NCBI RefSeq assembly: GCF_032062105.1
Contig: NW_026930899.1
Span: forward strand, 1 to 64,000
Length of the DNA stretch: 64,000 bases
Direction of reading: 5' to 3'
From: Saccostrea cucullata
Taxonomy: Eukaryota
Part shown: piece after piece, positions 10,601 to 50,508 of the stretch
How positions within the stretch are numbered: position 1 is the stretch's first letter
Layout: every line of letters begins with the position of its first letter
Notes under the pieces: generated by a model
Told to the model about the DNA's origin: nothing
What the model saw: only the letters and a program-made list of their open reading frames with translations
The model's database searches: none
Position numbers and translations under genes: made by a program

Positions 10601-12302
10601 ATATACTTCATATTTCCTAATAGAGTGCCCTCCGGGAATATTTGGAATGAATTGCAGCCAGAAATGTCCAAGTAGCACGTATGGGCAATTTTGTGCAAAA
10701 TTGTGTCAATGCCCCCCTGACCGATGCGACAAAAGACACGGTTGTGAAGGTACTCACATTTACACTTTTAACAATTTTTTTATATGTGCTCTTAGTGGGA
10801 CCTTATGATAAGATATCGTAAAAAGAATAAAAAATAGCTCATAAAGATATTATCTTATGTTTTATTTATAAGCAAATACAAATAGAACTACATTTGTACT
10901 CAGAAAATAATCATATTGGAATATTTTGCAGACATAGTTCTGGAGAAGGAAGAAAACTCAGGGCTGTGTGTTTCGTATGTATTGACTTAGATGTTCAATT
11001 GTTTTTAAATTGAAACTGTTGTTTTAACTAAAACAATGAACAAAGTGTGACAAAACACTTATACAAAAATGGCATACAAATAAGATTTGGTTAATAAAAA
11101 TACTGCTTAAAATTCAACATGATAAACATTTCCATTGAAGTTTGTGTCCGTGTTGTTATACCACCAAATTGCTTTGAAAAAAACACTGCAATAAATATTA
11201 TTCATAATAAAAAAGAGGAAATAAATTACATGTTTTAATTATATATTAATAATGAAATAGTAATATAAAGTGTATTATAGAAATATGTAGAAATAATTGG
11301 GTTTACTTAGAATTTATCCCACATCTTAAAACAAACCTTTACTTATATAGTCGAATATTAATTTTCTCTTGTAGGAAAGATGGTGAGCTTGAGTGCTGCT
11401 TGAGCTTTTACAAGACAAATAACACATGCGCAGGTAGTTGTCAATAAAATCCAAGTATAAATAATTTAAATTTTATCTATTTGTTATGATTGCATTGAAA
11501 AAGTGTTCTTAGAAATTCCTCCCTGTTTTGCAACCAAAACATTCTGTATTTTATTTTCTTTAGCCTGTCCAGCTGGGACGTATAACAATAACTGCTCCGA
11601 TCCGTGTCCGCCCGGATACTATGGTGAATTATGTTCTAAAGTATGTGACTGTTCAGAGGCTTCATGTGATAAAGTACATGGGTGTTCTCAAAAAGGTACA
11701 AATAGTTTTCGCTTTAGAATAATTTACAAATACAAAATGTAGGAAAATAAATATATTTTGTTTTCTAAAGTCTGCCCAGCTGGGACGTATAACAATAACT
11801 GCTCTGATCCGTGTCCGCCTGGATACTATGGAGAATTATGTTCTAAAGTATGTGACTGTCCAGAAGATTCGTGTGATAAAGTACATGGGTGCTCACAACA
11901 AGGTACAAGTAGTTTTCACTTGCGATTAATTTACAAATACAATATTTAGAAAAAAACCCAAGCAGATACAATGTTGATATGAGCATTTGATTTACTGCAT
12001 TAATATTTGTGAAACTCCTATTTTTATAGAAATAATTAAATCAGTTACAGATAAATTAATATATCGAAACGTCATGTTTATAAAAAGATATGAAGTGAAA
12101 TTATATTTCTTTGATTGTTTTAGTCTCCGGGACAGAGGTTCCGTTGAATATGATCATCTTTGCTGGAAGTATCACCCTTGTGTTCCTCTTAATAATGACA
12201 ATACTTTTCATAAAGTTTGCTAAACTTCAACGTCTCAGAAGACACGCACCTCTTTCCAACGATTTGACAGATGTGGCAGTTTATTCAGAAGTGAAGGGTT
12301 AG
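6798..12302 (+). CDS. G2: multi-EGF single-pass receptor with signal peptide and short single-tyrosine tail
   Basis: Exons 6798-6942 (MSFSDSKWIYFLAILGFCKL...RCVANYFLDFDNICK), 10624-10749 (EGF), 10932-10974 (..NSGLCV), 11375-11433 (ELECCLSFY..TCA), 11564-11695 and 11771-11902 (duplicated EGF), 12124-12302 (TM, tail ..DVAVYSEVKG*). Phases 1,1,2,1,1,1 are all compatible. Confidence 0.8.
7290..10390 (-). mobile_element. Penelope-like 3' fragment interrupted by a LINE
   Basis: 7290-7607 and 10285-10390 are contiguous in the uninterrupted copy (CAGCATTTGAC.CAAT|GATAAATTGTATTTGCTGAC near 24795-24830). Confidence 0.8.
7608..10285 (-). mobile_element. CR1/L2-group LINE, 5'-truncated in the APE endonuclease
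   Basis: ORF 8237-10261 has APE motifs (AGDLN just upstream, TLIDH, SDHYPI) and RT motifs (YRPISILP, QSGFR, LDFSKAFD, GVPQGSILGPLLF, FADD). One frameshift near 8265 leads into ORF 7900-8427 (RLQKRAARII..WNELP). An (ATT)n tail lies at 7608-7644. Confidence 0.95.
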
Positions 12303-20314: not shown

Positions 20315-20735
20315 ATGAAAACACATATCATAAAATGGATTTGTTGTTTTCTGTTAAACGATAAATATTTGACGTTAACAGACACAGTCAATGAGGCAAA
20401 GGGTTGTCCTGTAAATTACTTTTTCGACGTGGACAAGAAAAATTGTACAGGTAATAATTATTACATCTCGTGGTTTGTTTAATCTTTGACGAAAACAGTA
20501 AGAAAACATTTGATTTTTTCTTCTCATTTTTTGCAAAGAAAGGTCATCTTTCAAAGTAACTGTAGAATATCGCATAATGATTTTATAAAGAATGTTTCTA
20601 CCTAGAGTGTCCTCCAGGGAGCTTTGGCCAAAATTGTAGCGCCCCGTGTCCACCTAAATCGTATGGTCGACTGTGTGCAGAGGATTGTAGTGAATGCCCC
20701 CAAGATGAGTGCGATAAGGTCACAGGATGTCAAGG

Positions 20736-22664: not shown

Positions 22665-23100
22665 CTAGTAGTAATACGAATATGCTATATAACAAGCAAA
22701 AATGCATATTGTTAAAAGTTTTTTCTCTCTACTAGAAGTAATGATAGTATAGCCCTCAGGGCTTAACGGCTTTCTGCGATGGATGAAACGGCTTATTTCC
22801 ATATACATTAAAAGATTATGTAATAGGTATCTCTCGATATCCTCATATAAATTAAAAGCATATATAATATGGGTATCTCTCGATATCCTCATATAACTAT
22901 TTTTTAAAGTTTTCAAATATCACATAATACAAATAGTAATAATATTCTTTTTATTTATTCTGGGCATTATTTTTCTCAAATAAATATTTCAGCACCATAT
23001 CCATTTTAACTTTTTTTGTTTAAATGTATATAAAACATTTTTAATAAAGATTATATTATCAAAAAACTTGATCCGAAGGTTTGTATCAAGTTGTATTAAA

Positions 23101-23340
23101 TTGACAGGCGCGGATTATAAGATCAAACGAGACGCAAAACGTCGAGTTTGATCTGATGATCTGCACCCGTCAACGATATGTGATGTGACTCTTCGAATCA
23201 ACACACTGTAATAATGATTCATTTATTATAGCAGTAACTTGAACTGAAGAGCCGTATCACGTCTTGTTGACAGGCGCATATCACCAGATCAAACTCGACG
23301 CTTTGCGTCTCCTTTGATCTGATGATCCGCGCCTGTCAAC
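23101..23340. repeat. Pair of mutually inverted ~75-bp hairpins
   Basis: TTGACAGGCGCGG..GACGCAAAACGTC..GTCAAC (23101-23174) and GTTGACAGGCGC..GACGCTTTGCGTC..GCGCCTGTCAAC (23266-23340). Confidence 0.8.
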
Positions 23341-23419
23341 TCGACGTGATATAACCATTCGAATCAAGTTAATGTTATAGCAAAATATAGTAAACAAAAA
23401 CTGGAGAGTTCAATTTCAT

Positions 23420-23980
23420 TCTTATGTCGAAACGATATATCCCGGTGAGTTTGAGATAACCACAGAGCCTGATAAATTTGTTTAATATTTGGATATTTTA
23501 CTTGAAAAAGACGTTAATGGTCACTGCATGGTAATCTAACAACCAAGTTCTAATATGTATTTCAATTAATGTAATACACAAAATCATGCTGTACGTATGA
23601 ACAATCTCTGAAACGAGGTAAATTATTGAAGCTGATGAAAAAAGAATTCCAGCAGTCTCGTTTAAAGTCATAATTTCGTAAGCACTGTGTAACATTAACA
23701 GCAAAGACAATTTTTCAGAGTCAAATGCTGACTGACGTTTTTCATACTAATTGTTAGTCCATTATTTATGCACTGAATTGACAACGGATTCTTTCCGTTA
23801 TTTCCCAATCATGACAGGGAGCATACGGCGGGTGTGACAGGTTGGCAGGGGATGCTCATTCCGCTATGGCATCTGATCCCATCTCTGATGTTTTGGAGGT
23901 CCGTGTTTGCTCTGCTCCTATTTTGTCTTGTTTTATGGACTTTTGATCTTCAATACTCTTCGTTATCTCCATATGTTTCA
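23420..23980 (+). mobile_element. Penelope-like RT 3' fragment and 3' UTR
   Basis: IYPGEFE..YLDILLEKD.., SRLKS..RK, QMLTDVFHTNC, then the conserved GGCGGGTGTGAC..GGGATGCTC..CTGATCCC..GGAGGTCCGTGTTTGCTC segment. Confidence 0.8.
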
Positions 23981-24356
23981 TATATCATCTCGTCACTTTA
24001 CATAATACTCTGATATTATATCAAAGCATTTATAGTGGAAAAGGATTGCCCGCGAGAAAGTTTTAAAAAGTTCATTAATTAAGCAGTAGGCAATTAACAA
24101 AGATTGCATTGAAGTCTATGGGAAAAGGCGTTTTTTTTTTCTCAAAATAAAAATTTTAATAATTTGAATATCAATAAATCCTGCGGTGGAAAGATGCATT
24201 GAACATTAAAAATAGAATGACAATTAAAAACAGTTTTTTACCGACTATTTTTTTTTAAAATTGATTTTTTTATTAATTAAAAAGGGGAGATAACTCTAAC
24301 TAAAATTCAAGGTCATAAATTAGGACACATCCCACTATACATACTAGTAATAAATG

Positions 24357-24527
24357 GGAATCATGTCTAAATAAACCGAGTATTCAGTGCCTTCTGTTAT
24401 GTTATGTATTCAATTTTATTGAATTTGTTCCTATTAGGGATGGAATCATGTCTAAATAAACCGAGTATTCAGTGCCTTCTGTTATGTTATGTATTCAATT
24501 TCATTGAATTTGTTCCTATTAGGGATT
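24357..24527. repeat. 85-bp tandem duplication
   Basis: GGAATCATGTCTAAATAAACCGAG...CCTATTAGGGAT occurs twice with an 85-bp period. Confidence 0.9.
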
Positions 24528-24552
24528 GAATACCTTAAGGCTAGGAGGAAGG

Positions 24553-25268
24553 ATATGGAGATAACGAACAGTTCAATCGCAAAGTCCATTAAACAATATA
24601 CAAAACAATAGCAGAGCAAACACGGACCTCCGAAACATCAGAGGTGGGATCAGGTGCCATGGAGGAGTTAGCATCCCCTGCCGACCGGTCACACCCGCCG
24701 TGTGCTCCTTGTCATGATCAGGAAATAACGGAAAAATCCGTCGTCAATTCAGTGTATAAATAATGGACTAACAATTGGTATGAAAAACGTCAGTCAGCAT
24801 TTGACGCAATGATAAATTGTATTTGCTGACAAGGCCATTGTATCGACCATAAAACTTACGAAATGATGACTTTACACGTGTCTGTTGATATTCTTGTTTC
24901 ATCAACTTGCTTGTCAATAATTTACCTCGTTTAAGAAATTGTTCATACGTAGAGCATGCTCTTGCGCATCGAATCAACTGAGATATATACACTCCGTATG
25001 AAGGTGATGAAGGTATATTGCTGCATGAGTAAGGGAAGTTGACGATATAAAAGTTAAAGTCATCACGTTTATCATATACCTTGGTTGTTAGATTACCATT
25101 AGTGTCTTTTTCAAGTAAAATATCCAAGTATGAAGCAGAAGTGTCGGACTCTGTGGTATCTTTTATCTCAAGCTCACCGGAATATATAGTATTGACGTAG
25201 GAATGCAAATTATCAGTATTAACTGACAATACGTCGTCGATATATCTAAATGTCGAGTTGAAGGCCAA
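24553..25268 (-). mobile_element. Penelope-like element 3' part (RT C-terminus, no C-terminal GIY-YIG; Naiad-like)
   Basis: ORF 24768-25268: FRYIDDVLS..SASYLDILL..TTKVYDKRDDFNF.IVNFP..SNIPSSPSYGVYISQLIR..RKFYGRY..TDVFHTNC*, followed by a conserved 3' UTR. The Naiad assignment is inferred from the ORF ending after the RT thumb. Confidence 0.85.
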
Positions 25269-25671
25269 TAAGAATTACTTGAATACCTTGATTTATTGAT
25301 TTTATTTCTGTATTTTAATATATGAGAAATTATTAATTTAAAGAAAAGCTAAAATGTAATTTACATGTACACGATGAAAACTTATTGGCTATATTATTGC
25401 GAGATTCTCGTTTTTTTTTGTTTTTTTTTTTGAATTTGGGAATTTTTCCAGCCTTATAGATTGTACGATAAGACACAGAACTATTCATCATTATCATCAT
25501 TTAAAATGTTCAAATGACTAAACACATATTATAAATAATATAAAACATCATTTTCATATCCGGCTTCCCATCCAAAAGCTTACTTAAAATGCATTTTCCG
25601 GATTAAGGATATTTTTATTTCAGATATTTGCATATACATGCTTTATTCCTTCCTTAAATCTAGATACAAGT

Positions 25672-27189
25672 ATGCAACCGGCAGCAGGGGTCTGTGTAAA
25701 GTAAGACTTTTTTCCTTTATACCAAAACACCGTTTTTTTTTCAAATAGTTTGATGCCTAATTAATCATATTTTTTCTCCATAATTATAATTAAAATTAAT
25801 TTCAGACCTGGTGGTGTATCCGAATGTTGTTTAGGTTTTCATTTAGTTAACGGTAGTTGCCAGAGTAAGTATCAAGAACTTAGATAGACAAAAGCAAAGT
25901 GGATCAAGTTATTTTTTCTTCAAATAATCACATTTAACAGTTTTTGATCTTGAATTAAGAAGCAAGTTAATGTTCTTCCATAAGTAATTAGCCTTTGTTT
26001 CTTAATTGATAAAGTTCAGATTCTTTTTAAATAATCTCTATTAATGAAACTTTATTTTCCCCATATCTAACAGAGTGTCCAGACGGTACATTTGGTGCCG
26101 AATGTAAGGAATCATGCCCAGAGGGGCGGTTTGGAGCACAGTGTGCAGAGGAATGCACTTGTCCACCAGATGTATGTAAGAAGCACAATGGCTGTCCCAA
26201 AACTGGTAATTAAATCGTTAAGATAATATAAATTCTTTATAGATTTTTGTTTAATTTAGCAATGCTAGTTAATTAACAATGATTATCAAATATTTATATA
26301 CATGAATATCGTTATTGTAGAACTTGTGGTTTCTGAAGTAGTCACTACAGAAGCACCTAATACATCTTTATCGCCCTCTTACTTTACGTCCTCGACACAA
26401 GCATATTCCGCTTCACAGTCCTCAATTTCCACATCAATAGATGTATCAACAGTACCTAGTAGTACTTTGATTGCAAGAAGTACCAACAACTTATCTGTAC
26501 AATCATCTTTACCCCAGCTCATAACTCCTACTCAAGGAATTGCTTATAGCAGCGACGTAAAGTTAGTGATAGGAATGGGAGCGGGAATGGGGCTGCTTCT
26601 GGTTGTTATCCTTGTGTTGGTGGCACAAAGATGTCTGAGTAAGAAAATGAAGCAATACGACTCAACTAAGCACGTCAAATACAAACCATCTGAGGAAAGA
26701 AGTTTATCTGTAGTATATCAAGAAATTAATTACGATTTGATGGAAGAGACAGCAATTGTGAGAAAATCAAGCAAAGAATACAAACAATATCAAGTGATTG
26801 AGAAAGAAAGCACCACAGGTTCCAAATATGAAGGAATTCAACCATGTGGGTTACATGCTAAAGTCAACTCGTCAACATACCTCGACGTTGAGCCACCTGA
26901 TATCCAATCACCCATTGAAGCTCAAAGAGAACCCTTATCTACAGAAAAGAAATATTCCTATGTAGAAGTAGTCGAACCATTAGTCCATAGTGACATCATA
27001 TCCTCTGCTACAGAATACAAGAATGAAACCCCCGCATTGTATGATGAGCCTGATTTAACTGAGTGTGGTAGTACCACGGCCCTATGTCTTTACAGCGATA
27101 CTGGAAATGTTGAAATTGCAATTAAGACATGCACAGAAAAATCTGAAGACAGGATAGACCCTGCTTATCTTGATGTAATCAACATTTAA
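25672..27189 (+). CDS. G5: single-EGF receptor, long S/T stalk, long multi-tyrosine tail
   Basis: Exons 25672-25700 (MQPAAGVCV), 25806-25864 (SECCLGFHLVNGSCQ), 26074-26205 (EGF), 26321-27189 (TM LVIGMGAGMGLLLVVILVLVA, tail ending AYLDVINI). An additional upstream exon cannot be excluded. Confidence 0.85.
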
Positions 27190-28038
27190 AAATGTCACAT
27201 TTTCTTTTTTCACTGAGTTTTACTTCTTAGTTGGTTTGCAATACGTCTAAAGCAATTTGGAAATTTAGAAGTGTGTGCAAAAAACTAGCTTCAGTGAACT
27301 TGTAAAATTAGTTAAATTACACTGGAGAACATAAATTTGGTTAAGGTAAAAGATATAACACGATTATAAAACAATTTTAAGACAACTATCGTTCTTATTC
27401 AAATTCTTTGCACTTTTCTCGCCCTCCATTCAAAATTATATTGTCACTTGGTTTACCATATCGAAAAAAGTATATATTTAAATCATTCATTCATATGTTT
27501 TGATCTTCTTGCATGCATACACTTGACTTTTGTTAAAAGAGGATCTCTTTTCCGTAGTGCAAGTTTGAAGGTCATTTATCTCTATGCTACAGTAGAAAAT
27601 AAGAAAAAATAACTATTAGCTTTTTGATTTCATTAAATAAGATAAACTGTAAAGTTTAGAAACCCCTTAGCACCAACTGTTTAAATGTTTTACGATTGTT
27701 TTTAAACAAAACAGGGTCAACCCCCAAGCTGAAGTTCAAAAGGACAAATATCACGGTACCCAAAGAAAAATATCGTCACAAGAAATACACATGCAAAAAA
27801 TTTAAAAAAAAATTATACTATGTCTTCAATTAATCTAAGTTTTTTGCAGCCAATTATAGACAGAGAGACAAATAGCTAGAAAGACCCATGGACAGGCCAA
27901 ATCTCTAATTACGGGGACATAAGAAATACAACATATATAGAATATCCGTATTTTTTAAATATCAAAAATCAAATTATCTAATAGATTGACTTTTGAAATA
28001 GTTTCTTATGCAGAGTAGAAGAAAGCACTGCTATTACT

Positions 28039-29042
28039 TAAGGAATCACTGTCTAGTTTTGAGGGTATGCCAGGGCATCAACAATAGTGGGAAACATGGG
28101 ATAATTTGCATAACGGGCGAAGCCCGTTATGCTAAAATTATCCCATGTTTCCCACTATTGTTGATGTCCCTGGCATACCCTCAAAACTAGACAGTGATTC
28201 CTTATATTTCCATTTTTACTTGAAATAACCATCTTAAAATAAATCGAAATACCGTCTAATTGAGTAGATTTGAAATGCACAAGGCCCCATGACGTCAAAT
28301 TTTACTATAAAAAATAGTCCCAAAAACACGAAACAAATTTATTGACTATTTATATTTACCGTAGTCAAATATCAACATTTATAAAATAAACAATAAAAGA
28401 ATTTTAAATGATGATCAAAGTAATCTTGTTGACTTTAATTATATATGTGACCTAGATTTAGGTTGTCGGAAGCACGAACATATATAGGCACTATGTCACT
28501 TCTCCGCTGCCATATTGAATGCAATGTTGCAGTTGATGAAACGGGAGCTGGTCAGCATGGTCAGGAAACCGATTTGTATGGATGTTATAATAACAGAAGA
28601 AGTTGAGTTGCTTAAGAAGTCGGATGGTAATGACTAAGGGACGATGTCTGTATCAGATGATGGAGTACGTGCAGATCCATGTGGCAATGTCAATTTCTCC
28701 ACGTGGCTGTTTACCCTGTTTTACGGAAGTGGAGTTCTCGGTCTCGCAAGGCCTCGTTGATAGTGGACAGCTTTGCGCTAGTGACTTGCTTTCGAGCCGA
28801 AGATAATTCATTATTTATTTTGTTTGTTAAAAAGATATATCAATCAAATTACTTAGTAAACAATTAAACAAAACATCTATTTTTTCTTGAGTATATTTAT
28901 ACGCCAGTGATATACATGCAGGTTGACACCTGACCTTTCAGTAATAGAGAAATATACATACCACAGGGTATTATCATGAAATTAACAAGATACACTTTTG
29001 TAGTGTTTATCATAGAGAAAACAATTGGAAATGGAAATATAA
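28039..29042. mobile_element. Non-autonomous element with a 166-bp terminal hairpin and asymmetric inverted repeats
   Basis: Near-perfect palindrome 28039-28204 with a GCGAAGC tip (28117-28123). TTATATTTCCATTT (28202-28215) is inverted at 29029-29042. Confidence 0.6.
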
Positions 29043-31216
29043 TTTAATAAATGTATTTATATGAACTGGTACCATATCAAATTAACCTACAGCCTTTTTT
29101 GCAAGGACAAACATGGTCTTTTTGAGGCTTGCTGTACATATTCAGTCATTAGGTTCAGACAAATGTTCGTTGTCAACATTAACTATTCATTGTAGATGGT
29201 AAACTGCACGTACATTAGCGGAGAATGCTTAATGATTCGTTAGCTAGTCTGTAAGCTACGAAAATTTCTCTCAAATTATTCATTGAAACACTGATTTGTA
29301 AATTTTGGGCATAATAGAGAAGTATATTGTTAGTTTGTTAGTTAAAATACCCCTTCTTGGAATCTTATAGATAATGATATACACTCTAATTGTGCAGCTT
29401 AATTGAAGAGTATATGAGTATGATGTGTATGGACTTTGTAGTTTCACGGCATTAAACATTTGTAATGTTCAAATCCGTAACCATTTAAATTTGCTCTGCT
29501 CCTATTTTTGTATTGCTAATGGACTTCTGATCTTGAATACTCTTTATTATCTCCATATGTTTCATAAACTTTATTTTAAAAAATATTAACCTGGAGAAGA
29601 CACTTTATATTCCCAGAATATGATAATCTAGTACGTGTATATATGAAAAGAGATCGAGGTAAATTTACATAAAAGACATATGTCTACGAAATAAAAAAAA
29701 AAACTTCCTATTTCCTAAAAAAGAGACATTTTTTGTGTTTTGCAATGATACACAAACTTGAAGGGGTTCAGAAATGATTTTGCATCCGCATTTTTTTTTT
29801 TTACTTTAATGTCTCAAATGAAATATTGCAACGAGAATCTATTATTAATGAACAGTCGCCAAACTAAATGTGCAATTAATTTGCGGGGGTTGTATACCTG
29901 GTAATTAATTATTAGTTGTTTGGAAATTATTGAGACATTTGTATATTCCTTTTTCAAATGAACGTCTTTCGGTGAAAATTTGCATATTCATTTGACAGAC
30001 ATCAGAATTAATAAGAACAACAAATAATTTACAAATATTCAATTTATTCTTCTCTATGGTATTTAAATGATTCATGATCAATGATGGAGATACCCGACGC
30101 AGTCACAAAATTAAATTCTAAAAATGTGTAACATCAACCTTAAAACTACCGGTGGATACAAACCAGAATCAAAAACACTTTAATTCAGGAATTTTTTTTT
30201 TCAATTTGATTTTGACTTCATTTGGTGATAGTTTGTTAGAGTTTGTTAGAAATACGGAGATCATACATACAATTAAGCGCGGTATGAAAACTTGTGAGCG
30301 ACGACAAAACTTGTGTTAACTTCAAGGCTGCGCAGCGAACCTCCAGAAGTGTATAAATTGTTTACAGCTATGGTTTATTTTTTTCCTCTTGTGTACTTTA
30401 TGGAGTAAAGTAAATTTTTCAATTATTTCTGAACACTCTTTGTATAGTGATTATAGCAGAAGCATAACTCATTTTCCTTTTCTCCTATTAAGTATTCTCT
30501 CATCGTCTTAATTCATCTTATCATATATATTTTTCAAACTGACTTGATCTTAACGATGAAGACTGATAGCTAGTACATGTATTTTAATTGTAAATGGTAC
30601 CAGTTTAACTGTACATTCATCCCTAAGCAGACTTACAATCCCAATTCAAGATATTCTTACAGTAGTGAGAGTACGGACTGGGTCTAATTCTGTATTATTT
30701 CCTTGTGTAAATGAAAAAAAAAGATTTCCGAGAAAGAGGAAATATATGGTCTAAAAGGGAAAATTAAAGCAATTTGGGGCAGGAGTTTATTTGAAGTATC
30801 TGTATGAAAATAAAAACTGAAATTTATAGAGTAATCGAGCTCATGTCTACATAATTATTTTGCATCTTGCATCTACGATGTCAGATCCCAGCGTTAGTAG
30901 ATAGATTTACCCATATTAAAATTATATTTTCTTACAAGATTCGTAACTTTCATGTCAACATAATTTACTTGCATGTTGACATAAATATGTGGCATGTTTA
31001 TATAATCATGTTGCATGCTAACATAACTTATCTTCCATGTAGGGAACAGAAATATGACACCAAACAAAACTAATTGCATAAATGCTCCAATAGTCATTAT
31101 ACAACACGGAAACATATCTTATTCGATGGAATAATCAAGGCATACTTTATTTATAGATCACCGCCATTTTGATTTTTAATCGCACAGAATATAATTTCTT
31201 TTAGCTTTTAACTTGA

Positions 31217-32764
31217 ATGGATAAAACCGGAATTTGTAAGGAGTAAGTCTATTCAAAAGAGCATGCTTGCATATTTTTAGCGAATATTATGTTGTAACAA
31301 TATTATTTTTCTTGATCTAGATCAAAAGATGGTATTGAATGCTGCGTGAATCATTATCTTAAAGGAAACTCTTGTGAAGGTGAGTTTAAAAATACAAAAA
31401 ATTACAGTTTTTTCATTCTTTCATCATCATTAAAGTCATTATTTAAACTATTATAATTATCCTTTATCCTTTTCCACAGAATGTTCAGTCGGTTGGTTTG
31501 GCTGGAATTGTGTGAATTCTTGCCCTTCAGGAAGTTATGGTTGGCTGTGCTCAAATCGCTGTGAATGTCCGGATCAGCTTTGCAATTTTGTCTCGGGTTG
31601 TCCAACCGATAACAAGGTCACTCTGACGTTAGATTCAAACTCCTCGACATCTACAAGTGCAAGGAATAACACTAAAGATGTCTTAGAGACGTCTAGCAAA
31701 GGCTCTTCTGGTGAATTTAAATTTACCCTTTTTCAGTACAAAAATCCAAATTATTTGATCTGGAGTTTATAATATTTTTCTTGATATTCATTTTTTCTAA
31801 ATAAAAGGATATTGCATGAATATCCTCATCTCTTTTACAAATTTCAGTCATTATTATTTTCTGTTAAAATATCTTAAGCTTTAAAATGCAAGAATGTGAC
31901 CCCAATATTTTTATTATGATTCGTAAACGCTATTTATAATTTTTATGTTCAGATTGGTGATTTATATGTTTTAAAAATCAAAGTGGTGCATGCATATCGT
32001 TAAAGGTACTTCTTAAACGATTTTATTTAGATCCAGCAGTATTTCGATCGTCTAAGTCACCAGACTTGTCATCGTTATCCTCATCATTTTCATCATTATT
32101 ACCAACATCATCGTCCACATTGCAGTTAACCTCTACAACTTCCACCGTCTTAAAATCAACTGTGACAATGAGAAAGATATCTAACTCTGAAAATGGGACT
32201 ACAGATATCGCCGTAATACTTGTACCCATCGGAATCGCTATTGTATTCCTACTTATCACCATTATACTTATGATCGCTTGGAAACTAAATCTTGTACAAC
32301 GTCACAATCAGGTTTTGACGTCAGAAGTGATAACGTTGAAGAATGTAACTCAGTCAAGCGAGGAAACTGCAGACTATCAAGAAATTAACCTTGGACCGAG
32401 ACCAGAAAGATCATCTGAACAATTCAAAGTGAAAGGGGATCAGCAACATTATCATACAATTTTAGAGCAACATCTTTCTCAGTCATCTCCCTCTAAATAT
32501 CAAGAAATTAATAGAATTGAAGAGGAAAAAATATCAGAACATTTTTCAACAGAAAATGAGCAAAATTCTTCTTCGGCGTATCTTATATCTACATCTACAA
32601 AACCTGCGCATGCGTATATTGATGTTATAGAAACCTCACAGGAGGATATTGAGGCGAAGTCCAAAGCGTCTTTACTCACAGAGGAATATGATGACACTCT
32701 GTGCCATACCGACAACGAATTCAAATCGGCTGAAAATATGTATCTTGATGCCATATACATATAA
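31217..32764 (+). CDS. G6: single-EGF receptor, no signal peptide, long tail
   Basis: Exons 31217-31242 (MDKTGICK), 31321-31379 (IECCVNHYLKGNSCE), 31480-31710 (EGF plus stalk), 32031-32764 (TM IAVILVPIGIAIVFLLITIILMIAW, tail ending MYLDAIYI). Confidence 0.87.
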
Positions 32765-33599
32765 GCTGCCATGAATTTATAAAATGCAAATAAATTTTTT
32801 AAAAAGTTTTGTTGTACGTTATTGTTGGGATAGTTAAGTATTAATTTCATATGATGCATGGAACCTTCCTAGCTTTAAAGTTCCTGGCCTCAAGCCCACA
32901 GACTGAGAGCAGACAATTCAAAGTTTTGTTTAAGAATAACTTGAGATCTATTCTATACACTTAGGTGCATAAAAATCGCACGATTTTAAAATAAACAAAT
33001 CTAAACACGTATTGACAGTTTTTCAACATTATCAAAATTATTTGTAAAGCTTAAAAGATTTAAAATTTTGCCTGAAGTGTTTTTCTCGATCAATTGTTTT
33101 AGAATATGTACTCAGTATAGCCAGCATTTGAAGAATCAATTTCAAGTGGACACTCAGGTTTAAGTTAGACATTTTAAGATATATAGATAGTCATCATCTT
33201 TTATCAATAATTATTGAAAAAAGAGTTTTAAATATATACTTGTTGTTATCAAGCATATTATCTGTTGTGGATGCAATAATTTTGCAATACTTTTACCTCA
33301 CTTTTAGAAAACTTTCAAAATTTAAGCACATTCAAATAGTTTTTCCGGCTCAAAGAAATAATACTTTCCTAAACAATTTTATTTTTGCAGCTTTCTGAAA
33401 ATGGTTTAAAAAACAATGCACTGCATAAATCTCAAATTTAATTATTAATGCTTTTCAACTTAATTACAGTGTTACTAATAAGGCATTTCCTGTCAAAATC
33501 AAGAATTTTTAAAACTATATGTAATTTTTTTGTTTGTTGAACAAAAGTTTCATAGTTAGAATTATATGCATGTAATTTGTTTATTGTTTGAAACCTTCA

Positions 33600-35979
33600 A
33601 TGGAGACTGGAAGATGTAACAGGTACATGTACATGTTCATTCTTTTTATAGTTATGAGAAGTAAAAATAATTGTAACAGTGTTTCAGTTGACAGTAATTA
33701 AAGGAATGCTCTAAAGCACAATGATTTAATGGTAAACAACAATAATAGTATAAACTTTTTATGTTTTATTATTTAAAAAAATCGTCTGAACAATTATAGA
33801 ATTAGAGATAATATAGGAATAGAAATTTTGGGGGTATCTCTATTTTTCATTTTTGGTAATATTATTCTTAAAGTTAAGATTAGATGTGTTATAACAACAT
33901 TGTGAAAATAAGAAGTGTTAAAGCAAATATTAAAAAAATACTTCTTTATTTATTATTATGATGCCGTAGTCGATGTTTTTACTCCAGAAAACCAAAAATA
34001 AGTATGAGATTAAAAAAAAAATAACATAAGAGGTTCACAATAAGCATTATGTAATAAGGAATTCGTGAAAGTATCATCAACAATAATTCTTTGATATAGG
34101 TGAAGTTGCATATAAAAGAGGGTACCCATCAATATCATATAAAGAATTACAGCATCCATGTTTGCTACGGGAAACCAAAAATATGTGTCGGATCAAAGAG
34201 TCAAATATGTGGTCACAATAGCACTATGTAACGAAGATTTCGTGAAACATTCTTTAAATTTTATTCACTGGTATAAGAAAAGTTGCCCATAAAAAATGGG
34301 TACCCCAAACAGATGGACGCACATGTATGTACACTTAGACAGACAGATGGACGGACATCCCAATCACTGTATACCCTCCCAATTTTCAAGAGGGAATATG
34401 AAAATAATTGAGATATGGCAAACAGTTATCAATCTTAGGAAACATATGTGCAGGGAACAGGGTCCATGCAGGAGTAAGCATCCACTACCGACGGTTACAC
34501 CCTATGTATGCCCCTAATCATGATCAGAAAAACGGAAAAATACGTAGGCATTTCAAAATGTAAACTAGAGATACTGTGAGCACTGAGATTAATAAAAGAT
34601 ACCCCAACCCTTATATTTTTACAATGGCAAAGACCATGTTTTTTTTATCTGGGAAACCAAAATATGTTTCAGATGGAAAATGAAATAGGAATAATACAGT
34701 GACATTATGTAAACTTTGCTCATTTAAATGCTATAAAATATTTTTTATTAAAGCCCTCAAGACATCATTGTTGTATGCTGCACAAACTTTTACCAGACGA
34801 ACAATGCTTGTAGACGTAAGTAATCTAAGGAATAAGAGTCTATTGCTCGAAATACATTTGAAGAGGTTTATAAGAGATACACGTATTACGAGCTCATGGC
34901 AATAATCATTTTCATATGCACAAAAATGTACGCGTTATCTAAAAAAATTGAAACATTAAGTAGAATGATCTCTTTCAAATCGATTTATAAAAATGTCGTT
35001 CTTTAATCCTACTAAGTCTGCATTTGAATATACGTGTGTAATATCTTTTGATTTGAAAAAAAATATTTCTGAATATGGATATCGTAAGGATTTTGATACT
35101 GTCATGCTTTGACCTACCAATCTTGACGCAGACAACAAGCAGTTTATCCTTAAGCTAAGTGTACCTTCTATTTCCTTATTCTTTTATAGCTTGTCCTCCG
35201 GGTTCATATGGAAGAAACTGTTCGCTCACGTGTCCACCAGGCTGGTTTGGGAGTGAATGTAAATACTCGTGTGATTGCCAGCTTTCTGATTGTTACCCAA
35301 CATATGGTTGTGTGACGACAACTACCTCTAAAGCATCATCATTTCCGTCAACATTTAATTTAAGAGATGCATCTCAAGGTGGGGATATAGAAATGAAGAA
35401 TAAAAGTAGTTTTAAGTATCTAAATCAAATTATTTCATTTATATTACAATAATGAGATTGATTTCAGATAAAACGACGGTTTCTTTCCTAGAAGTCAGTG
35501 GTTCATCTTATCTAAGAAGTGTAACAACATCAATTCTTTATAAAAATCCAGGTCTCAGGGTATCTCAGCCGAATTACTCTGCTGTTATTGTCACCGTGTC
35601 TGTTGTGGTTGTATTACTTATAACAATTGTGTTTGCCATTCTTTTTCGGAAAATCATCATGCTACAAAACAGAAATAACATGATATCGCAAGAGGTTGTT
35701 GCATTAAAAATGACATCAGTAAATGATAACAATGTGTACGATCAGTTTAGGGAAGATATATCAGCATCAAATGTCTACAATGTAATTGACGAAAATAAAA
35801 CTTCGCAAAACAATATTGACAATTATTTGGAACTTAAAAGACACTCAGGGACCAATTGTCATCGCTCTATGCAGGTTTCACCTCCAGAAATACAATCTGC
35901 GATAGACGATGAATCAGAATACTTGGATCCAGTTTCAGATGCTGGAGTAAGCAATGCATATATTGACGTTATTGCTTAG
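33600..35979 (+). CDS. G7: single-EGF receptor, no signal peptide, medium tail
   Basis: Exons 33600-33622 (METGRCN), 34754-34815 (VVCCTNFYQTNNACR), 35190-35378 (EGF plus stalk), 35468-35979 (TM AVIVTVSVVVVLLITIVFAILF, tail ending EYLDP..NAYIDVIA). Confidence 0.83.
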
Positions 35980-36594
35980 GTTGTCTGTTCAGCAATATAA
36001 TAGGTATAGCTTGGTTGTTTTATACCGGACATCTATGTCGTGGAGTGATCAATTTCGGTCAATGACAATTTTATGACTTTACTGAATAAATAACATTTTA
36101 ACAAGATTACATAAATATGTCTTTTATTATATCTTTATTTTTGTCTCGCTGCTATGGAGATAATTCATTGCACAACTTTCAATAATTTGCAAAGAAGCCT
36201 GAGTTTAATTTCACTATTTTGAAATGTGTTTCTTTACCTCGGAGATTACCATTTAATGTGTTTCGCAGAAAACGTTTAAATTTTTTCTCTATTTTTGTCT
36301 TTTAGAACCTTTATATTTATTGCTAAGCCATGAATACAATTTTCAAAAGGCCCTTGATTTTGGTTCTAAATGAAAAAGTTATTTTCTTTTATGCGATAAA
36401 CATAAAACAACTATATAATTCTGGCTTCTGCTTCTTATTTGGCCTTGAAAACTGCAAAAATCATAAAAATGCTGAATCACCAAAAAGTGCATAAAAACAA
36501 CAAAAACACAAGATGTGTTTGCTTTTTTGTGAAGCACTATGCGCCCGGCGGCAACAAAATTCGAAAAGGCTATTTTTAGCATAGAGGTAACAGG

Positions 36595-36910
36595 ATGATA
36601 TGGTGATAACGAACAGTATTCAATATCAAAGTCCATAAAACAATACAAAATTATTATTAATAGGAGCAGAGCAAACGCGGATCTCCGAAACATCAGAGTT
36701 GGAATCAGGTGCCATGGAGGCGTGAGCTCCTTGTCATGAACAGGAAATAATGGAAAAATCCGTCGTCAATTCATTGTATAAAGAATGGACTTACAATTAG
36801 TATGAAAAGCGTCAGTCAGCGGTTGAGTCCATAATAAATTGTATTTGCTGACAAGGTCATTTTATCGACCATAGAACTTACGAAATGATGACTTTAAAAC
36901 GAAACTGCTG
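36595..36910 (-). mobile_element. Penelope-like 3' end fragment
   Basis: High similarity to 24553-24880. Confidence 0.8.
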
Positions 36911-36919
36911 ATATAATAA

Positions 36920-37400
36920 AGTTTACGGGGTCATTGACCTTTGTGTCATTTGAAAGAACATAATAAGTAAAGTACATGTATGCATACAAAATTCACTCTC
37001 TTTTACTATCTCTTATGATTCAAAAGTTATGGCGAAATTTCAAAAAGGCTATTTTTTATAAATATGTTTCATTCAAGGTCACAAGGTAACCGGTATTTAA
37101 AGGTGTATGCATACCAAGTAGGAAGTCTCTATCTCCTATGGTTCAAAAGTTATGACAAATGTCCGAAAAAGACTTTTTTAGCATATAGGTCACAGTCAAT
37201 GTCAAACGGTCATTGACATTCTGTCATTGGAAAGAACATAATTAGTGAAGTATGCATACCAAACATGAAGTCTCTATCTCTTAAGGTTCAAAACGAAGTT
37301 ATGACGAAGGTTAAAGTTGACAAGAAACCGACAGACAAACAGATAGACAGACAGGACAAAAAGAATATACGTCCATCTATCGACCTGGGTGCACAAAAAT
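36920..37400 (+). mobile_element. Helentron-associated (HINE-like) element with tandem core repeats
   Basis: Repeated GGTCATTGAC..TATGCATACCAA..GAAGTCTCTATCTC..GGTTCAAAAGTTATG units, then a GACA microsatellite and a short terminal hairpin. Similar architecture at ~27700-27925, 34030-34400 and 62465-62730. Confidence 0.6.
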
Positions 37401-39464
37401 GTAAAGCATATTTATTCTAAAACGTCTAATACAAATCGACTTTTGATCTTAATTCGATATTTTTTGCATTATTTCTTCAAATTCTTTCTTATATCGGTAA
37501 TGAGAATATTCATTTTTGTATTTAAATCTTAAAGATAAGAAAAATTTTCACCATCAAAATGACTGGTTGATGAGGAAAATTCTTCTCAAGAATTACCATA
37601 ATCCAAACATTTTTCATTTTTCAGACATTGTTAATTGTGCAAGAGAAATCTTTTAGTGGACATAAAATCAAATACCTCAGACAACAACCATGGATGAAAC
37701 TTTGTCTGATGTTTAAATGGACTGTCATGATTGCAAAAATAAAAAAAGTATACAGTTAATCTGAAAAATGTACATATTTGTTCTAGAAATAACCATGTGA
37801 ATATTACGATTTCTGTTTCCTTCATGTCCCTTTAATCCTTTGGTGTTTTTATGTAATTGTACGGACTTGCACAGACTGGTCTTACTTTATTAAAATTACA
37901 TCATAATTTGAATTAAAGGAAATGTACAATTCAATAATAATTATAAGATCAAACATTCATCAATTTTGTACCAGACAAAACATATATCACGTGCTTACAT
38001 ATTATTAAACGCACACTACATTTTAAAATTAAGTTAAGTGATCAAATTGGAATTTAGAAATAAGCATTGCGATCACTGATATATACTGTATGACCTTTTA
38101 GCTCGTGTTGATGTCACTGAGTTGAATTTTTTAACATTCTTTTCGTTTTACTGGTTTTTCGATTAATTTTAGAAAAGAGATATATATATTCTTTTAAATG
38201 AGCAAAGAATTACCTATATGTATAAAGCATTAAATTACCGATATCCATCAAAATTACGAATATTGTTGCAAAATAATATTAAATGAAGCGAACATCACTA
38301 CGTCTATTAACCTTTTTTGCAGCATTAGTCATTCATAACGTTAGTGTCATTGAATATGAATCTTTTTCTGAACGACACTTTTATTATTTAAAACTAGGCA
38401 TATTAGTCAATTTTCGTAATCTCTTTTCTTAACTATCATTACCTTAGAATTCTATTTATCAAGTAATTTTGCTTAAAAAGACAGAAATGCTTTGATTAAA
38501 AATTAAAAGACCCCCCTTTTTTACTTTCTTTATTAGAAGCCCTATTGGTGTGAACATTTAACTCAAGAAATAGATTTAGATGGGATACTAAGTAATTGAG
38601 TAGGGTAAAGGAGTGGGTGTTGCAACAACTATTGAAAAAAACAGCTGTAGAATTAGTTATTTCCATGGTGGTTAAAAGTGCATTTCAAAACAATGCATAA
38701 GTTGTAACCACTATTGAAATAATGTTCACTACTGACATAACTATTTTAATAAAGGTTTTGAATTTATTTTAAAACCTAAACCAGGTTGCAACCAATTTTA
38801 AAATATAACCACTATTGAAATAAAAATTTCAATAGAGATTTAAATGAAAATTTCAATAGGGATTGAAATGAAAATTTCAATAGTAATGAAGAAATGGGTA
38901 AATGCAGAAGACAAGCCTTTCTAAGAACTTTTATAATGAGTCGTGGATGATATAGGGCCCTAAGAGTTCCCGAGTCTAGGACTTCATTTTTATAAGAGAC
39001 ATTTTATATTTTATTTTAAAGATGAACTTTTTATAAGTAAAAAGAAATCTTGAGTCAAACACACACATGACTGGTAATCACACGTCATAAAGAGCCTAAA
39101 CAAAAATTATTATGCTCACAATTATATATTTACAAATCATATTTTTCTCCGCCTACTTAAACTTCCTTTATAATTAAATTTAATTGCGCTTTCTACAGTA
39201 CTACAAATAAAATACCATTTTTTTTTTCTGAAAATGAGATGTACAGATGTCAGCAAAAGGTCATCTGGAGTTTAAAAGATCTTATTTATATTAGACGACA
39301 TTATTTAAACCGATTAAAATTATCTAGTGATTAGATTGAATTTATGAGTAGATTTTCCTGAACGGATACTGAGAAATAATCAAATGAAAAAAGTAATATT
39401 TATCATTACAACCCACTAGTTTACAAATTGTTAAAAGTCGTTATTCGTCATACAAGAGACAGTA

Positions 39465-40865
39465 ATGGACCAAGGAAGATGCATCAGGTATGAAAAAACA
39501 AGAACTTATTTCTAAAAACACCCCTTTTCCTTTTAATGATATTTAAAAATCATTGTTTTAAGAAGTAACCTAAAGGAATTATTAAACACTTTTAATTTTG
39601 CTATTCATTGCAGTTCCTCAAACGGCGAGTTCGAATGTTGCTCTAATTTCTATCTGGATTCAGACATTTGTAAACGTACGTATCATTTTATATCTTTTTA
39701 TCAAATAAATTACAAGTTTTTATCTTCTATATATTATGTTTCTTGTATCTTAAATTTCATTTCTAAGTGAAAATATAAAAACTTAAGATAAACATACACT
39801 AGGGAGCTGTGTGTATTTTAGCTTGTCCCCCTGGTACCTATGGCGTTAACTGCTCCTTCAGCTGTCCCCGTCTGATGTATGGCGATGGCTGTGGATACAT
39901 ATGTAACTGTTCTCCAGATCGATGTGATGCTGTCTATGGCTGTGGTATGACGACAACATCAACAGACTCATACAAACCAACATCAACTGGTATAACCATA
40001 GGTATAGCCTTTTTATCCCAATAAATATAATGGATTGATTTTTTTTGGGGGGGGGGTTAAACTGTAGATCTTTTTTTCTAACTTTAACTTTTTGCTGAAA
40101 TTTTTAGAAAGACCGGTGACAGTTTCTACTCAATCATTTCTCACACAACGTGTTGAGATAACCGAATCACCCTCCTCGACAATCTCCACCCTAAGGGACA
40201 CCGCTGTCAATATCAGAGATGAGACTGAGCCGTTCCCGTACAGGGCAATCATCATAGGAATGGGTGTCGTGCTATCTTTCTTTTTGGTATTTACATTCAT
40301 ACAACTATGTTCTAAAATGCGGTCAAAGCGAAAGAGAATCAAATCGTCTGAAGAAAGCGGAATCTACCACGAAATTCCTGCAGCAGATGAGAGAGTACCA
40401 CAGGAAATTACCGAACATTACAACCAAGTAACTGAACAAGGAAATATCAGCTCCATTAAAAAACAAGAAAATATGACAATACAAAAGACGCCAAACAGCG
40501 TCGGACCATATAGACCACCCCTCTATGATGATATTAAGCAAGAAGAGTTTAACCCATCAATGTATGAAAAATATTTGCATGATATGTATTTAACAGTTGA
40601 AGAAGCAAAGAAAGACGAAACAGATTTAAGTTCCGATTCAGAAATCAGAGAATCATACCTAGAGCCGATATCAAAACAAGAAACGCACTTTTATACACAT
40701 GTGATGGGGATTTCAAATGATACAACATCTAGTGCAAATACAGAACGGGACAAGGATACTTCAATGCATTCAGATTGTGAAGATAATGATGCATCGGTCA
40801 AAAATGCAAGTCCAAAGGATAATTTGGAACAACAGGAACTTTACTTACAAGTTATTCAAATATGA
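39465..40865 (+). CDS. G8: single-EGF receptor, long multi-tyrosine tail
   Basis: Exons 39465-39487 (MDQGRCI), 39614-39675 (FECCSNFYLDSDICK), 39822-39989 (EGF), 40108-40865 (TM AIIIGMGVVLSFFLVFTFI, tail ending LYLQVIQI). Confidence 0.87.
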
Positions 40866-42638
40866 CTCTCTACCTTTTTGTTTGCTTTTATATGATTTTC
40901 ATCATACAAATCAAATTTCCTTCAATTGATTGTACATATATCATTATATTAACATCAAATGCTTCCGACATGTTACGCTTGTAACACGACTTAGAAAACT
41001 ATATATAAATGTGATGCAATCACTTCAAATAGTAGAATTATAATGAACTTCTTCCATGTAAATAAGAATTAAAATTACCAATTTTATTTTTTGGTTCTTA
41101 CAACATTCATTTCCTTCTGTTAATGAATTGTCTGTTACTGTTTTAAATACCTCGCTGACTGTTCATAAAAACAAAAATATATTTATATTATTCATAAATC
41201 AGAATGAGATTACATAATTGCATGTTTAGGTCAAATTCGAAGATGGTTTTAGATATACTTTATTTCCTCTGTGATTATCCCAGAAACCCTTAAAATACAA
41301 AAATCATCTTCAACATTTACTATAATTAGACAGCACACTTTGTAGGAGAGGAAGTGGACAACATCAATAGGAAAGGCCTCTAGAAAACAAGCATTTTATT
41401 ATCAAAACAAGAGAATGCTCTATTATAATCAAAATAGACAACACATATTGCATGTTTCCGCCACTTTCGTAGACAACGGAAGTGTTGATATAGGTTGAAT
41501 AATGAGAATTGCTTACAAAAAACATACCGGTATTTTGGCACAAAATTCTGACTCAAAGCCTGGCTTTAATAGCTTTTCTGAAAAGTTTGTCATTCTCAAA
41601 TTTTCCGTTGATTCAAATATGTGGAGTGGACATAAACAAACTATATTACTTCAATATCAACGTAATTTAAGACTTTGTATTGCATGGATAAGAGAATGTT
41701 TCAAATAATCACTAAGGAACCTTGAGATGAAAGATACGATACTAATTTAGGAGATCAAAAAACTTCTTAAAGACAACTTTGAAGACTTTTTTTTCTATTG
41801 TGAACATTCCTTCCTTACATACTTATACCATAAGCATCTACAGATAGATTTAATATCTTTCATTTGATTTAATAGAACATTAAAAATTACGAACAATTAC
41901 AATTTCTAAGATAAAACAAGCATTCTGTAAATTCTTTAGTTGACAAATTAATACAATAAAATACACAGAAGACTTAATTATAGATTTATTTGCTAACAAG
42001 ATTATTGTATCGACCTTAAAACTTGCGAAATAATGACTTTAAACAAGACTGCTGATATTTTTTGTTTATTCAATTATGTCAATAACTTAACCGTATTGGA
42101 CATTGTCCCTAGGTAGAACATACTCTTGCATATAGAATCAACTGAGAGAGATAAACCCCGAAAGAAGATGATATGGGTATATTGCTAAATGCATAATAAA
42201 AGTTGATGATTGAAAAGTTTAAGTTATCATAAATTATGCTTTGTTGTTAGGTTACCATTAACATTTATATAATTGAGCCGAATCTTCATTAATATTTTTA
42301 TCAATACAAAGTGTAACTCTGCTATTTCACACTGAATTCTCTTCATGACAAGCACCGCATGGTGGAAGTGACCCATCATAGAAGAATGCTTACTTCTACG
42401 TGACAACTCGTCCCAAGACCATAGACTGAGAACAAATCCAAGTCAGAATTTCAAATAAATATAACTTTTGATATAATTTTGATAATGAAAAAAAATTTCA
42501 TCACTTGTTAAAATTACATTATTTCACAAACTGCAAAATTTTAAAGACCTTATATTAAATAAAATGCGAGATATTCAAAATCAATTTTTTTTACTTAAAT
42601 CTGTTCTCGGTTTATTGTCTTGATGCCTGATCTCACCT

Positions 42639-50075: not shown

Positions 50076-50508
50076 ATGGATTACACTGTGATTAAACTGT
50101 TTGCTCTCTGGATGAGCATTTATACACAAGTAAGAGTATATTGTGATAACACTCATCCTGACGAACATGGAGAGTAAGTAGAAGTTTGCTTTTCAAATGT
50201 TTATAATGATTTGAAGTGTATCATTGACTTGGATAGATGTGTTTATCGTATTTATTTATTACGATTAAAACTATATATATTCTTTTCTCAGGTTTAACTG
50301 CTGTTTGCACTTCTTTTTATATGATGGAGAATGTTGAGGTACGTAATAGGAATAGCATGTAGTATAAGGACTTAAAATATCAAGTCGTCATTTTGTTTGA
50401 AATATTGTTATATAAAGCCTTTTTTCAGAGTGTCCGTTCGGTTTTTTTTTCGGACAAAATTGTGCTCTTCGGTGTTACCATCCTTACTATGGTCGACTAT
50501 GTCACTCT
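50076..50508 (+). pseudogene. G10: pseudogenised duplicate of G11
   Basis: Exons 50076-50173 (signal peptide), 50292-50338 (NCCLHFFLYDGEC*, TGA at 50335 where G11 has CGA), 50429-50508 (EGF truncated at a MITE). Exon 1 and 2 sizes (98 and 47 nt) are identical to G11. Confidence 0.85.

Follow-up and report, generated by a model that had tools for sequence, protein, structure and literature searches.

How a receptor whose first exon encodes no signal peptide is brought into the membrane is the question raised by the DNA analysed here, a window of 64,000 nucleotides from Saccostrea cucullata in which short single-pass receptor genes of the MEGF10/SCARF-like kind are arrayed in tandem. Five of these genes, G1 and G5 to G8, belong to the family as intact copies, expressed or annotated in RefSeq, with an exon 1 that lacks a signal peptide. 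The charges flanking the TM, the disordered stalks and a paired loss of two cysteines in signal-less members point to N-out receptors with tyrosine-motif tails, and judged by these sequence features the five proteins probably enter the membrane N-out, as type III proteins, by means of their one TM helix. We consider evenly balanced the wider proposal of an oyster-wide, ancient branch of EGF immune receptors that passed, in one or several events, from type I biogenesis to type III through a trimmed exon 1 or an alternative first exon, and whose disulfide ectodomains of 120-170 residues are translocated without the signal peptide that sister paralogues keep.

Five first exons without a signal peptide

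The start codons lie at 808 (G1), 25672 (G5), 31217 (G6), 33600 (G7) and 39465 (G8), all on the + strand, with the first cysteine (Cys1) at residue 9, 8, 7, 6 and 6, respectively; the sequence thus confirms the first-pass annotation, which had placed an ATG 5-8 codons ahead of Cys1 in each gene. RefSeq models of G1, G6, G8 and of the copy of G7 begin at these methionines. The same annotation had pointed to an in-frame TGA (31214-31216) abutting the ATG of G6 and to an in-frame TAA (33573-33575) 8 codons from the ATG of G7 with no AG between, and had concluded that no upstream coding exon can be spliced in frame in either gene. All of this holds in two genomic copies, as the second, on contig C4971, retains both stops without a splice acceptor, together with the TAA of G8. 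Base errors behind the upstream stops, which had been named as a possible refutation, were also considered, and the identical stops of the C4971 copy rule out an error that erased a signal peptide. Another in-frame stop, the TAG at 31202, is read differently in runs X2 and X12. The genomic exclusion of an upstream exon is limited to G6 and G7 because the leaders of the other three genes contain AGs between the nearest in-frame stop and the ATG (two in G1, four each in G5 and G8).

The spliced models of the five genes have open frames and GT-AG boundaries at 15/15 introns, in phases 2/1/1. Exon 1 of G1 (808-842) is that of RefSeq LOC134230486 isoform X1; isoforms X2 and X3 use an ATG at 824 in a different frame, X2 with a donor at 847. 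Coding exon 1 of G5 (25672-25700) is followed by exons 2-4 at 25806-25864, 26074-26205 and 26321-27189, with RNA supporting both downstream joints. In G6 (LOC134230487), coding exon 1 runs from the Met to Cys1 and a phase-2 donor (31217-31242), exon 2 in the spliced model is the CC exon (31321-31379), exon 3 holds the Tie2/SCARF-like EGF unit and the start of a Ser/Thr stalk (31480-31710), and exon 4 carries the stalk, the TM (32213-32275) and the Tyr-motif tail (32031-32764). A contig, apparently of RNA, terminates exactly at the donor of G7 exon 1 (33600-33622); the CC exon of its spliced model (34754-34815) is followed by the EGF exon (35190-35378, donor at 35379) and by an exon 4 (35468-35979) with stalk, TM (35584-35646) and a tail bearing an ITAM-like pair. 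G8 (LOC134230467) consists of exon 1 (39465-39487) and exons at 39614-39675, 39822 to about 40001 and 40108-40865, with the TM at 40248-40310, and four residues that close exon 3 in our model are missing from its RefSeq protein. An in-frame upstream ORF of 11 codons at 39384-39419 is either a uORF or a possible signal-peptide relic.

RNA covers the G6 leader 5' of its nearest acceptor. Raw-read depth is low over G5-G7 (about 0-4 per strand) and reaches 7-20 per strand over G8 exon 4 in two raw RNA runs. None of the RNA joints listed from alignments over 22700-41300, in which repeats predominate, is an exon 1-2 joint of G6-G8.

Signal peptides were scored by hydropathy and gene structure. A scan for signal-type exons, which recovered those of G2, 47.2 kb and 52662 and missed the one at 50076, found none before G5, G6 and G7, none in the 935 bases covered between the contig start and G1 (which itself lies 807 bases from that start), and one weak candidate upstream of G8 that lies within a repeat. 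The leader of G5 is hydrophobic and open for 28 codons, with acceptors; 20% of randomly drawn open stretches of 28 codons reach a similar score. In G7, a brief IIVV segment precedes the CC pair (8-residue hydropathy 2.84), inside the Cys domain.

Signal-bearing relatives and family assignment

The homologous phase-2 exon encodes a signal peptide in 46/77 ab initio family models, with 19-53 aa from Met to Cys. Within the window, signal-type first exons are found in G2 (6798), in a gene at 47.2 kb, at 50076 and at 52662, in agreement with the clear signal peptides earlier ascribed to G2, G10 and G11, labels that we matched to loci by our own mapping of that numbering. The weak signal peptides ascribed to G3 and G4 are equivocal: their best 8-residue hydropathies are 1.55 and 2.06, and the median of signal-bearing exons is 3.29. 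Only 7/42 signal-bearing first exons contain an internal Met at most 9 residues from Cys1. For signal-bearing genes, RefSeq may include short isoforms that are signal-less (P0045 versus P0066). In the own-genome locus closest to Logan protein P0035, a signal-type exon adjoins the CC exon, and C8047 has two candidate first exons. A broken family copy, with a TGA within its CC exon at 50275-50340, lies nearby.

Hundreds of relatives of these genes exist, and most of those sampled carry a signal peptide. A tail-profile search of a 50% library gave 45 matches, 15 of them with an intact Cys-rich N-terminus; 12 of these 15 are signal-less (four being window genes or their copies), two are ambiguous, and the remaining one belongs to a signal-bearing gene as its short isoform. 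When the ectodomain was used in word-indexed protein searches, only self matches were returned.

Profile comparisons match the EGF unit to Tie2 (E 3e-4) and SCARF1 (E 1.3e-3), which are also the top Foldseek rows, both weak (E >0.04). PF23301 was found in 4/25 members (best E 0.006), Pfam gave nothing above cut-off on four full proteins, and relatives are labelled MEGF10, as are Atlas clusters at 0.90. The family pattern of an exon 1 ending at Cys1 (phase 2), a CC exon (phase 1), an EGF exon and a single TM is present in the five genes, and the signal peptide in exon 1 that belongs to the family definition in PMC13712769 is absent from them; we therefore regard them as a variant derived from the short MEGF10/SCARF-like family. 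They have no long EGF-repeat array, and a search of 25 members returned no EMI match with E of 0.05 or below, although a remnant of that domain, of insufficient length to score, may persist as the C...CC module. A TNF receptor fold appeared only as a weak Foldseek row (HVEM, E 1.1), and the VIA fold search matched the TM helix alone.

Orthologues and trees

Saccostrea and Ostrea diverged tens of millions of years ago. Start methionines are shared across species: the orthologue of G6 in Ostrea edulis, LOC125680951 (support 100/100), starts MDNSGIC from the same Met, and the orthologues of G5, S. echinata LOC133173879 and O. edulis LOC125680949 (support 100/99), share the Met of G5, the latter in its isoforms X2/X3; its isoform X1 has a longer, mildly hydrophobic N-terminus. 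This sharing across species argues that the signal-less start is due neither to base error nor to recent decay. Between G6 and its O. edulis counterpart, identity is 66% for the Cys domain, 79% for the region around the TM and 23% for the stalk, and the full Cys set is retained in the other genus. A term search of PMC9679249 and PMC9679248 gave no date for the Saccostrea-Ostrea split.

The first-pass annotation had spoken of a subfamily lacking signal peptides. The absence itself is borne out by RefSeq, by the second genomic copy and by the orthologues, whereas descent as a single clade is a possible origin that the ectodomain-only tree does not reject (p-AU 0.756); that tree (77 rows, 59 columns) is poorly resolved, with 5 changes versus 5.9 in shuffles. 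A 23-row tree has only a midpoint root, which cannot order gains and losses, and places G8 on a long branch.

Predicted topology

The N-terminal part of the five proteins measures 130-166 aa, so that the lower figure given earlier for the ectodomain, about 130, stands and the upper, about 190, does not. It is followed by a single long hydrophobic TM, and the basic residues earlier noted after the TM are present, with a net charge of +2 to +7 after and -2 to 0 before it (for G7, the C4971 copy was scored); the C-terminal flank of the TM is positively charged in 23/23 proteins scored (+2 to +8). All 12 cysteines of the Cys domain fall in one 70-residue unit, which is among the parts best conserved across genera. 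Cys1 is lost in 4/24 full-length rows, possibly just two independent events, and with it, in all four, the second cysteine of the CC pair, which is kept in 20/20 rows with Cys1. Three of the four are signal-less proteins, suggesting that the disulfide still forms. An AlphaFold2 model has a pLDDT of about 90 at residues 11-70 and below 50 at 73-160. Each of six tails counted carries 3-7 YxxI/L/V motifs, four of them (G1, G5, G6 and G7) with ITAM-like pairs, and none has an NPxY (0/6); an automatic TM-tail finder recovered 22/77 models, several of them false.

With this in mind, one may propose that SRP would recognise the TM at residue 131-167, and that the N-terminal part, unfolded in the cytosol, would be threaded behind the anchor into the ER lumen through Sec61 or with the assistance of the EMC. 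Cytosolic folding would be precluded because the 70-residue domain needs six disulfides and the stalk is disordered; the disulfides would form once in the lumen. Once at the cell surface, the protein may engage a ligand outside the cell and pass a signal on by way of YxxI/V and ITAM-like motifs phosphorylated by kinases; immune recognition is the most plausible role. According to PMC2139883 and PMC6269167, a long hydrophobic TM followed by positive charge favours the N-out orientation, and an unfolded N-domain permits it. The EMC typically serves N-out anchors and handles domains under about 50 aa (PMC13220792 and its preprint). An N-domain of 130-166 aa set against that limit, and the depletion of N-glycosylation sequons in the Cys domain of the window group, count against an N-out arrangement.

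Alternative explanations

The start may be real but the insertion N-in or mixed, or the protein intracellular, with a cytosolic Cys-rich domain that binds metal or stays unfolded, or with an ectodomain of little matter as in LAT/PAG-like adaptors. The length of the N-terminal part is great for an N-out signal anchor (PMC13220792), a sizeable N-domain disfavours N-out in the model proteins of PMC2139883, and sequons occur in 4/9 window-group proteins versus 42/46 signal-bearing models. We nonetheless regard such an arrangement as unlikely: the distribution of charge around the TM speaks for C-in in each of the 23 proteins, the conserved tyrosine motifs would end up outside, and the Cys domain, so well conserved across genera, retains 12/12 cysteines or loses them pairwise.

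It is also improbable that a signal peptide has been missed and that the main product is type I, whether by an upstream exon spliced into the leader (G1, G5, G8) or onto the CC exon, by a non-AUG start or by an alternative first exon. The AGs in the three leaders, the hydrophobic G5 leader, the signal-like uORF at 39384, the closeness of G1 to the contig start, the two candidate first exons at C8047 and the isoform pair P0045/P0066 all speak for it. However, a route via exon 1 is impossible in G6 and G7, the G6 leader RNA extends 5' of the nearest acceptor, the annotations of three species use the same start Met, signal-bearing first exons rarely offer an internal Met near Cys1, and the upstream scan of G5, G6 and G7 met no signal-type exon, though it overlooked that at 50076. 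Least probable, and very much so, is decay, in which duplicates shed the signal peptide and ceased to yield a functional receptor. Broken copies nearby, the sparse reads over G5-G7 and the possible relic ORF of G8 would fit decay, but frames are open, splice sites are intact, orthologues in another genus share the start and the full Cys set, and G8 exon 4 is covered by RNA. We therefore favour type III insertion of genuine signal-less receptors.

Comparison with known receptors

LAT and PAG are signal-less single-pass adaptors with many cytoplasmic Tyr motifs and almost no ectodomain, whereas in the oyster proteins a mucin-like stalk still carries a conserved disulfide domain. The N-out topology, described in the first-pass annotation as unusual for EGF-repeat receptors with ectodomains of about 130-190 aa, appears less so in view of Table S1 of PMC13220792, which lists TACI (TNFRSF13B, 164 aa), BCMA (TNFRSF17, 50 aa) and the EGF-domain protein pro-neuregulin-1 (NRG1, 239 aa) as N-out without a signal peptide. 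These have disulfide-rich ectodomains, and the aspect shared with the oyster genes is topological, on the oyster side as predicted here; in the searches made here no sequence or fold match between the oyster proteins and TNF receptors reached significance, and the oyster genes, unlike TACI, BCMA and NRG1, belong among hundreds of mostly signal-bearing relatives. A snail family (PMC13712769) resembles them in its clustered single-pass genes and Tie2/SCARF-type EGF unit, and the oyster five share exon phases with signal-bearing members of their own genome. Yet the snail proteins have a signal peptide by definition and mostly small tails, in contrast to the long, Tyr-rich tails of the oyster five, and signal-less genes were treated there as possible annotation fragments. 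CED-1/Draper/MEGF10 (PMC8092387) likewise combine an EGF-like ectodomain, a single TM and YxxL/ITAM-type tyrosines, but have an EMI domain, many EGF repeats and a signal peptide where the oyster five have the one Cys unit, and cytoplasmic NPxY is a feature of theirs.

N-out topology itself is known; a switch from type I to type III within one large receptor family looks new. No report of signal-less oyster EGF receptors appeared among the papers listed by our searches of the openly accessible literature. The long N-out cases known so far are isolated genes, TACI and NRG1 for example, and signal anchors that pull N-domains of more than 100 residues across the ER are poorly covered by current models, which tie N-out anchors to the EMC and short domains. 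Sister genes with a signal peptide, such as LOC134278684 X1, and without one share domain, stalk, TM and tail, so that exchange of one exon of 25-35 bases would test the translocation rule directly. If the switch is true, it would provide a natural paired series for what enables long N-out domains to cross the ER membrane, and may serve to regulate delivery to the surface. Filters that require a signal peptide would discard real receptors. Members of the family turn up repeatedly in work on disease: in C. virginica, MEGF10-labelled transcripts differ between Perkinsus-tolerant and sensitive families (PMC9892467), and a cluster is located in a snail resistance region.

Signal-less first exons

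The window, at the start of contig C13036, holds a plus-strand array of small four-exon genes. Exon 1 ends after the first cysteine (Cys1) in phase 2 and is followed by an exon with a cysteine pair (the CC exon), an EGF-like exon and a last exon for stalk, transmembrane helix (TM) and tail. RefSeq contains Saccostrea cucullata proteins identical to the window gene models. The first-pass annotation had proposed that five of these genes (G1, G5, G6, G7 and G8) start at an ATG a few codons before Cys1 and encode signal-less, N-out (type III) receptors, with in-frame stops upstream in G6 and G7. The five ATGs, their distances to Cys1 and both stops are as claimed when read from the window sequence; the observation of signal-less starts is confirmed, and the reading of these genes as signal-less, putatively N-out receptors is supported. 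Base errors as the source of the upstream stops are contradicted by a second genomic copy on C4971 (88-96% DNA identity; a haplotype or recent duplicate), which retains the stops of G6, G7 and G8. Upstream of the ATG, the nearest in-frame stop is 20 codons away in G1, 28 in G5 and 10 in G8, and AGs occur in each interval, so that sequence alone closes only G6 and G7. A scan for Met-started hydrophobic exons with a donor gave none upstream of G1 (935 bases available), G5, G6 and G7, and a single weak candidate upstream of G8 (37086, in a repeat-rich stretch); in other parts of the window it picked up three signal exons but not a fourth.

Several leaders have features of their own. Upstream of G8 (39384-39464), an in-frame uORF with a basic hydrophobic start begins 27 codons before the ATG and contains two interrupting stops, both also in the C4971 copy; its 33 codons to Cys1 match the median of signal-bearing exons, and it may be the relic of a signal peptide or have a regulatory function. 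The G5 leader (25585-25671) is open, in-frame and hydrophobic over 28 codons; it contains acceptors and, at 25589, an ATG in another frame. A similar hydropathy score occurs in 20% of random open stretches of equal length. G1 exon 1 (808-847) ends in a tandem pair of donors with a four-base spacing; its three RefSeq isoforms, in two reading frames of that exon, are all signal-less. In G3 and G4, the first and CC exons are merged, with loss of Cys1 and its partner (14466-14600 and 20317-20450). Since G4 groups with the signal-less G1, the weak signal peptide noted for it earlier may derive from former intron that is now translated.

The signal-bearing norm of the family

A degenerate exon 3 pattern gave 463 matches genome-wide (1.17 Gb) and none for the reversed control, indicating a very large family. 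We sampled 80 stretches around places among the first 100 matches listed, with six others and the window. Among 77 distinct ab initio models, 46 have a signal-type first exon; the others comprise 23 unresolved models, six rows for the window signal-less genes or their copies, one further signal-less candidate, located on C228, and G2, for which a separate scan identified the signal exon. Signal-bearing exons place 19-53 residues (median 30) between Met and Cys1. The micro-exon of the signal-less genes is therefore the homologous first exon minus its signal part. The C228 candidate is an unlinked family gene (L010, ~17-17.6 kb) with the signal-less first exon MERSGECG; outside the window, its tail scores best against the profile of window tails (20.8 bits). 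In a family gene at L094 (C8047, ~605-608 kb), a signal-bearing first exon adjoins the CC exon and a signal-less look-alike lies 2.5 kb upstream, possibly as alternative first exons for type I and type III forms.

Conservation across oysters

Six TM-plus-tail segments from the window were combined into a profile, which matched 45 of the 1.84 billion proteins searched. By inspection these are 15 with an intact Cys-rich N-terminus, three partial, 20 last-exon ORFs and seven unrelated. Twelve of the 15 are signal-less, two ambiguous, and the last represents a signal-bearing gene through its short isoform. Cluster look-ups for 30 matches supplied names and additional members. The partner of G6 (MDKTGIC) is LOC125680951 of O. 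edulis (MDNSGIC). Those of G5 (MQPAAGVC) are LOC133173879 of S. echinata (MQSAEGIC) and LOC125680949 X2/X3 of O. edulis (MQPGVC). The signal-less O. edulis LOC125680946, LOC125680950 and LOC130046383 group with G1 and G4. A second group is annotated with a Met-Cys start in S. cucullata, S. echinata, Magallana and Ostrea and includes a C. virginica member annotated as signal-less; because most of its S. cucullata leaders contain AGs, this start is taken from annotation only. A signal peptide is retained in LOC134278684 X1 of S. cucullata and LOC130051842 X1 of O. edulis, two relatives whose tails are of the same type. The trees are compatible with one loss of the signal peptide or several. Between G6 (31217-32764) and its C4971 copy (L002), the Cys domain is 100% identical against 83-84% for stalk and tail, which may reflect conversion or selection on the ectodomain.

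RNA evidence

Four of 24 runs were compared with the window, X1 and X2 being presumed RNA. Both downstream exon joints of G5 are present. An X2 contig covers G6 exon 3, with 21 differences in 230 bases, and 216 further bases; the number of differences points to a divergent allele or relative. Further differences at 31183, 31184 and 31202, present at equal contig depth in X2 and also among the reads of X12, place RNA over the G6 leader upstream of its nearest acceptor, and the X2 contig appears to extend to at least 31126. An X1 (Logan) contig (32428-33622) extends without splicing from G6 exon 4 and stops precisely at the donor of G7 exon 1 (33622); it may represent read-through, overlapping UTRs, or pre-mRNA or DNA. 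No exon 1-2 joint occurs among the RNA rows listed for the four runs, which makes this evidence partial.

Protein anatomy and topology

Structure prediction gives a confident Cys-rich unit (residues 1-70), then a stalk of low confidence, and a helix from 165 to 209. The unit resembles EGF repeats of Tie2 and SCARF1 in profile and fold searches. All four full-length rows lacking Cys1 also lack the second CC cysteine, and we infer a disulfide between the two. By eye, the C-x3-Y-aromatic-x5/7-C-x2-C spacing of the G1, G4 and G8 CC exons is similar to that of the cysteine-rich domain in TACI/BCMA; in the fold search, no match to a TNF receptor was significant. Stalks of the five signal-less genes are 37-45% Ser/Thr. 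Tails carry 3-7 YxxI/L/V motifs, with ITAM-like pairs in four of six and NPxY in none of the six. The signal-less genes do not qualify for the CED-1/MEGF10 group; their best placement is within the molluscan short MEGF10/SCARF-like family, as a variant that lacks the signal peptide, a variant for which we found no description in the literature searched.

The signal-less proteins combine the lack of a signal peptide with one TM, starting at residues 131-167, and a charge bias, positive residues following the TM. According to PMC2139883 and PMC6269167, N-out insertion is favoured where a long hydrophobic anchor precedes positive charges, and it requires an unfolded N-terminal domain. In the proposed mechanism, the Cys-rich domain, which depends on disulfides and sits on a disordered stalk, would stay unfolded in the cytosol, be threaded after TM recognition and then be oxidised in the lumen. 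Type III topology is common in humans, with 304 of 2,248 single-pass proteins in the preprint of PMC13220792 (section 6), and Table S1 of PMC13220792 includes long disulfide-rich N-out domains such as those of TACI (164 aa) and NRG1 (239 aa). Against the proposed reading stand sequon depletion in the window group, the length of the domain compared with the EMC's usual range, and examples of database entries with a signal-less N-terminus whose gene has a signal exon as well. CED-1/Draper/MEGF10 (PMC8092387), together with mollusc disease studies (PMC13712769, PMC9892467), suggest that the receptors may signal through phosphorylated Tyr motifs and may have an immune role.

Other features of the array

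A G1-like copy with exons 3-4, and no CC exon found upstream, sits directly behind a G2-like gene on C3168 (L003, 5460-6630). In the gene that begins at 50076, the CC exon contains a TGA (50275-50340), and an open, similar copy of exons 1-2 lies downstream (52662-52934). G2 has two near-identical EGF exons in tandem (11566-11892), with one each in the C3168 copies, and its first intron holds, on the minus strand (8240-10300), a 687-codon ORF that by eye is LINE reverse transcriptase-like.
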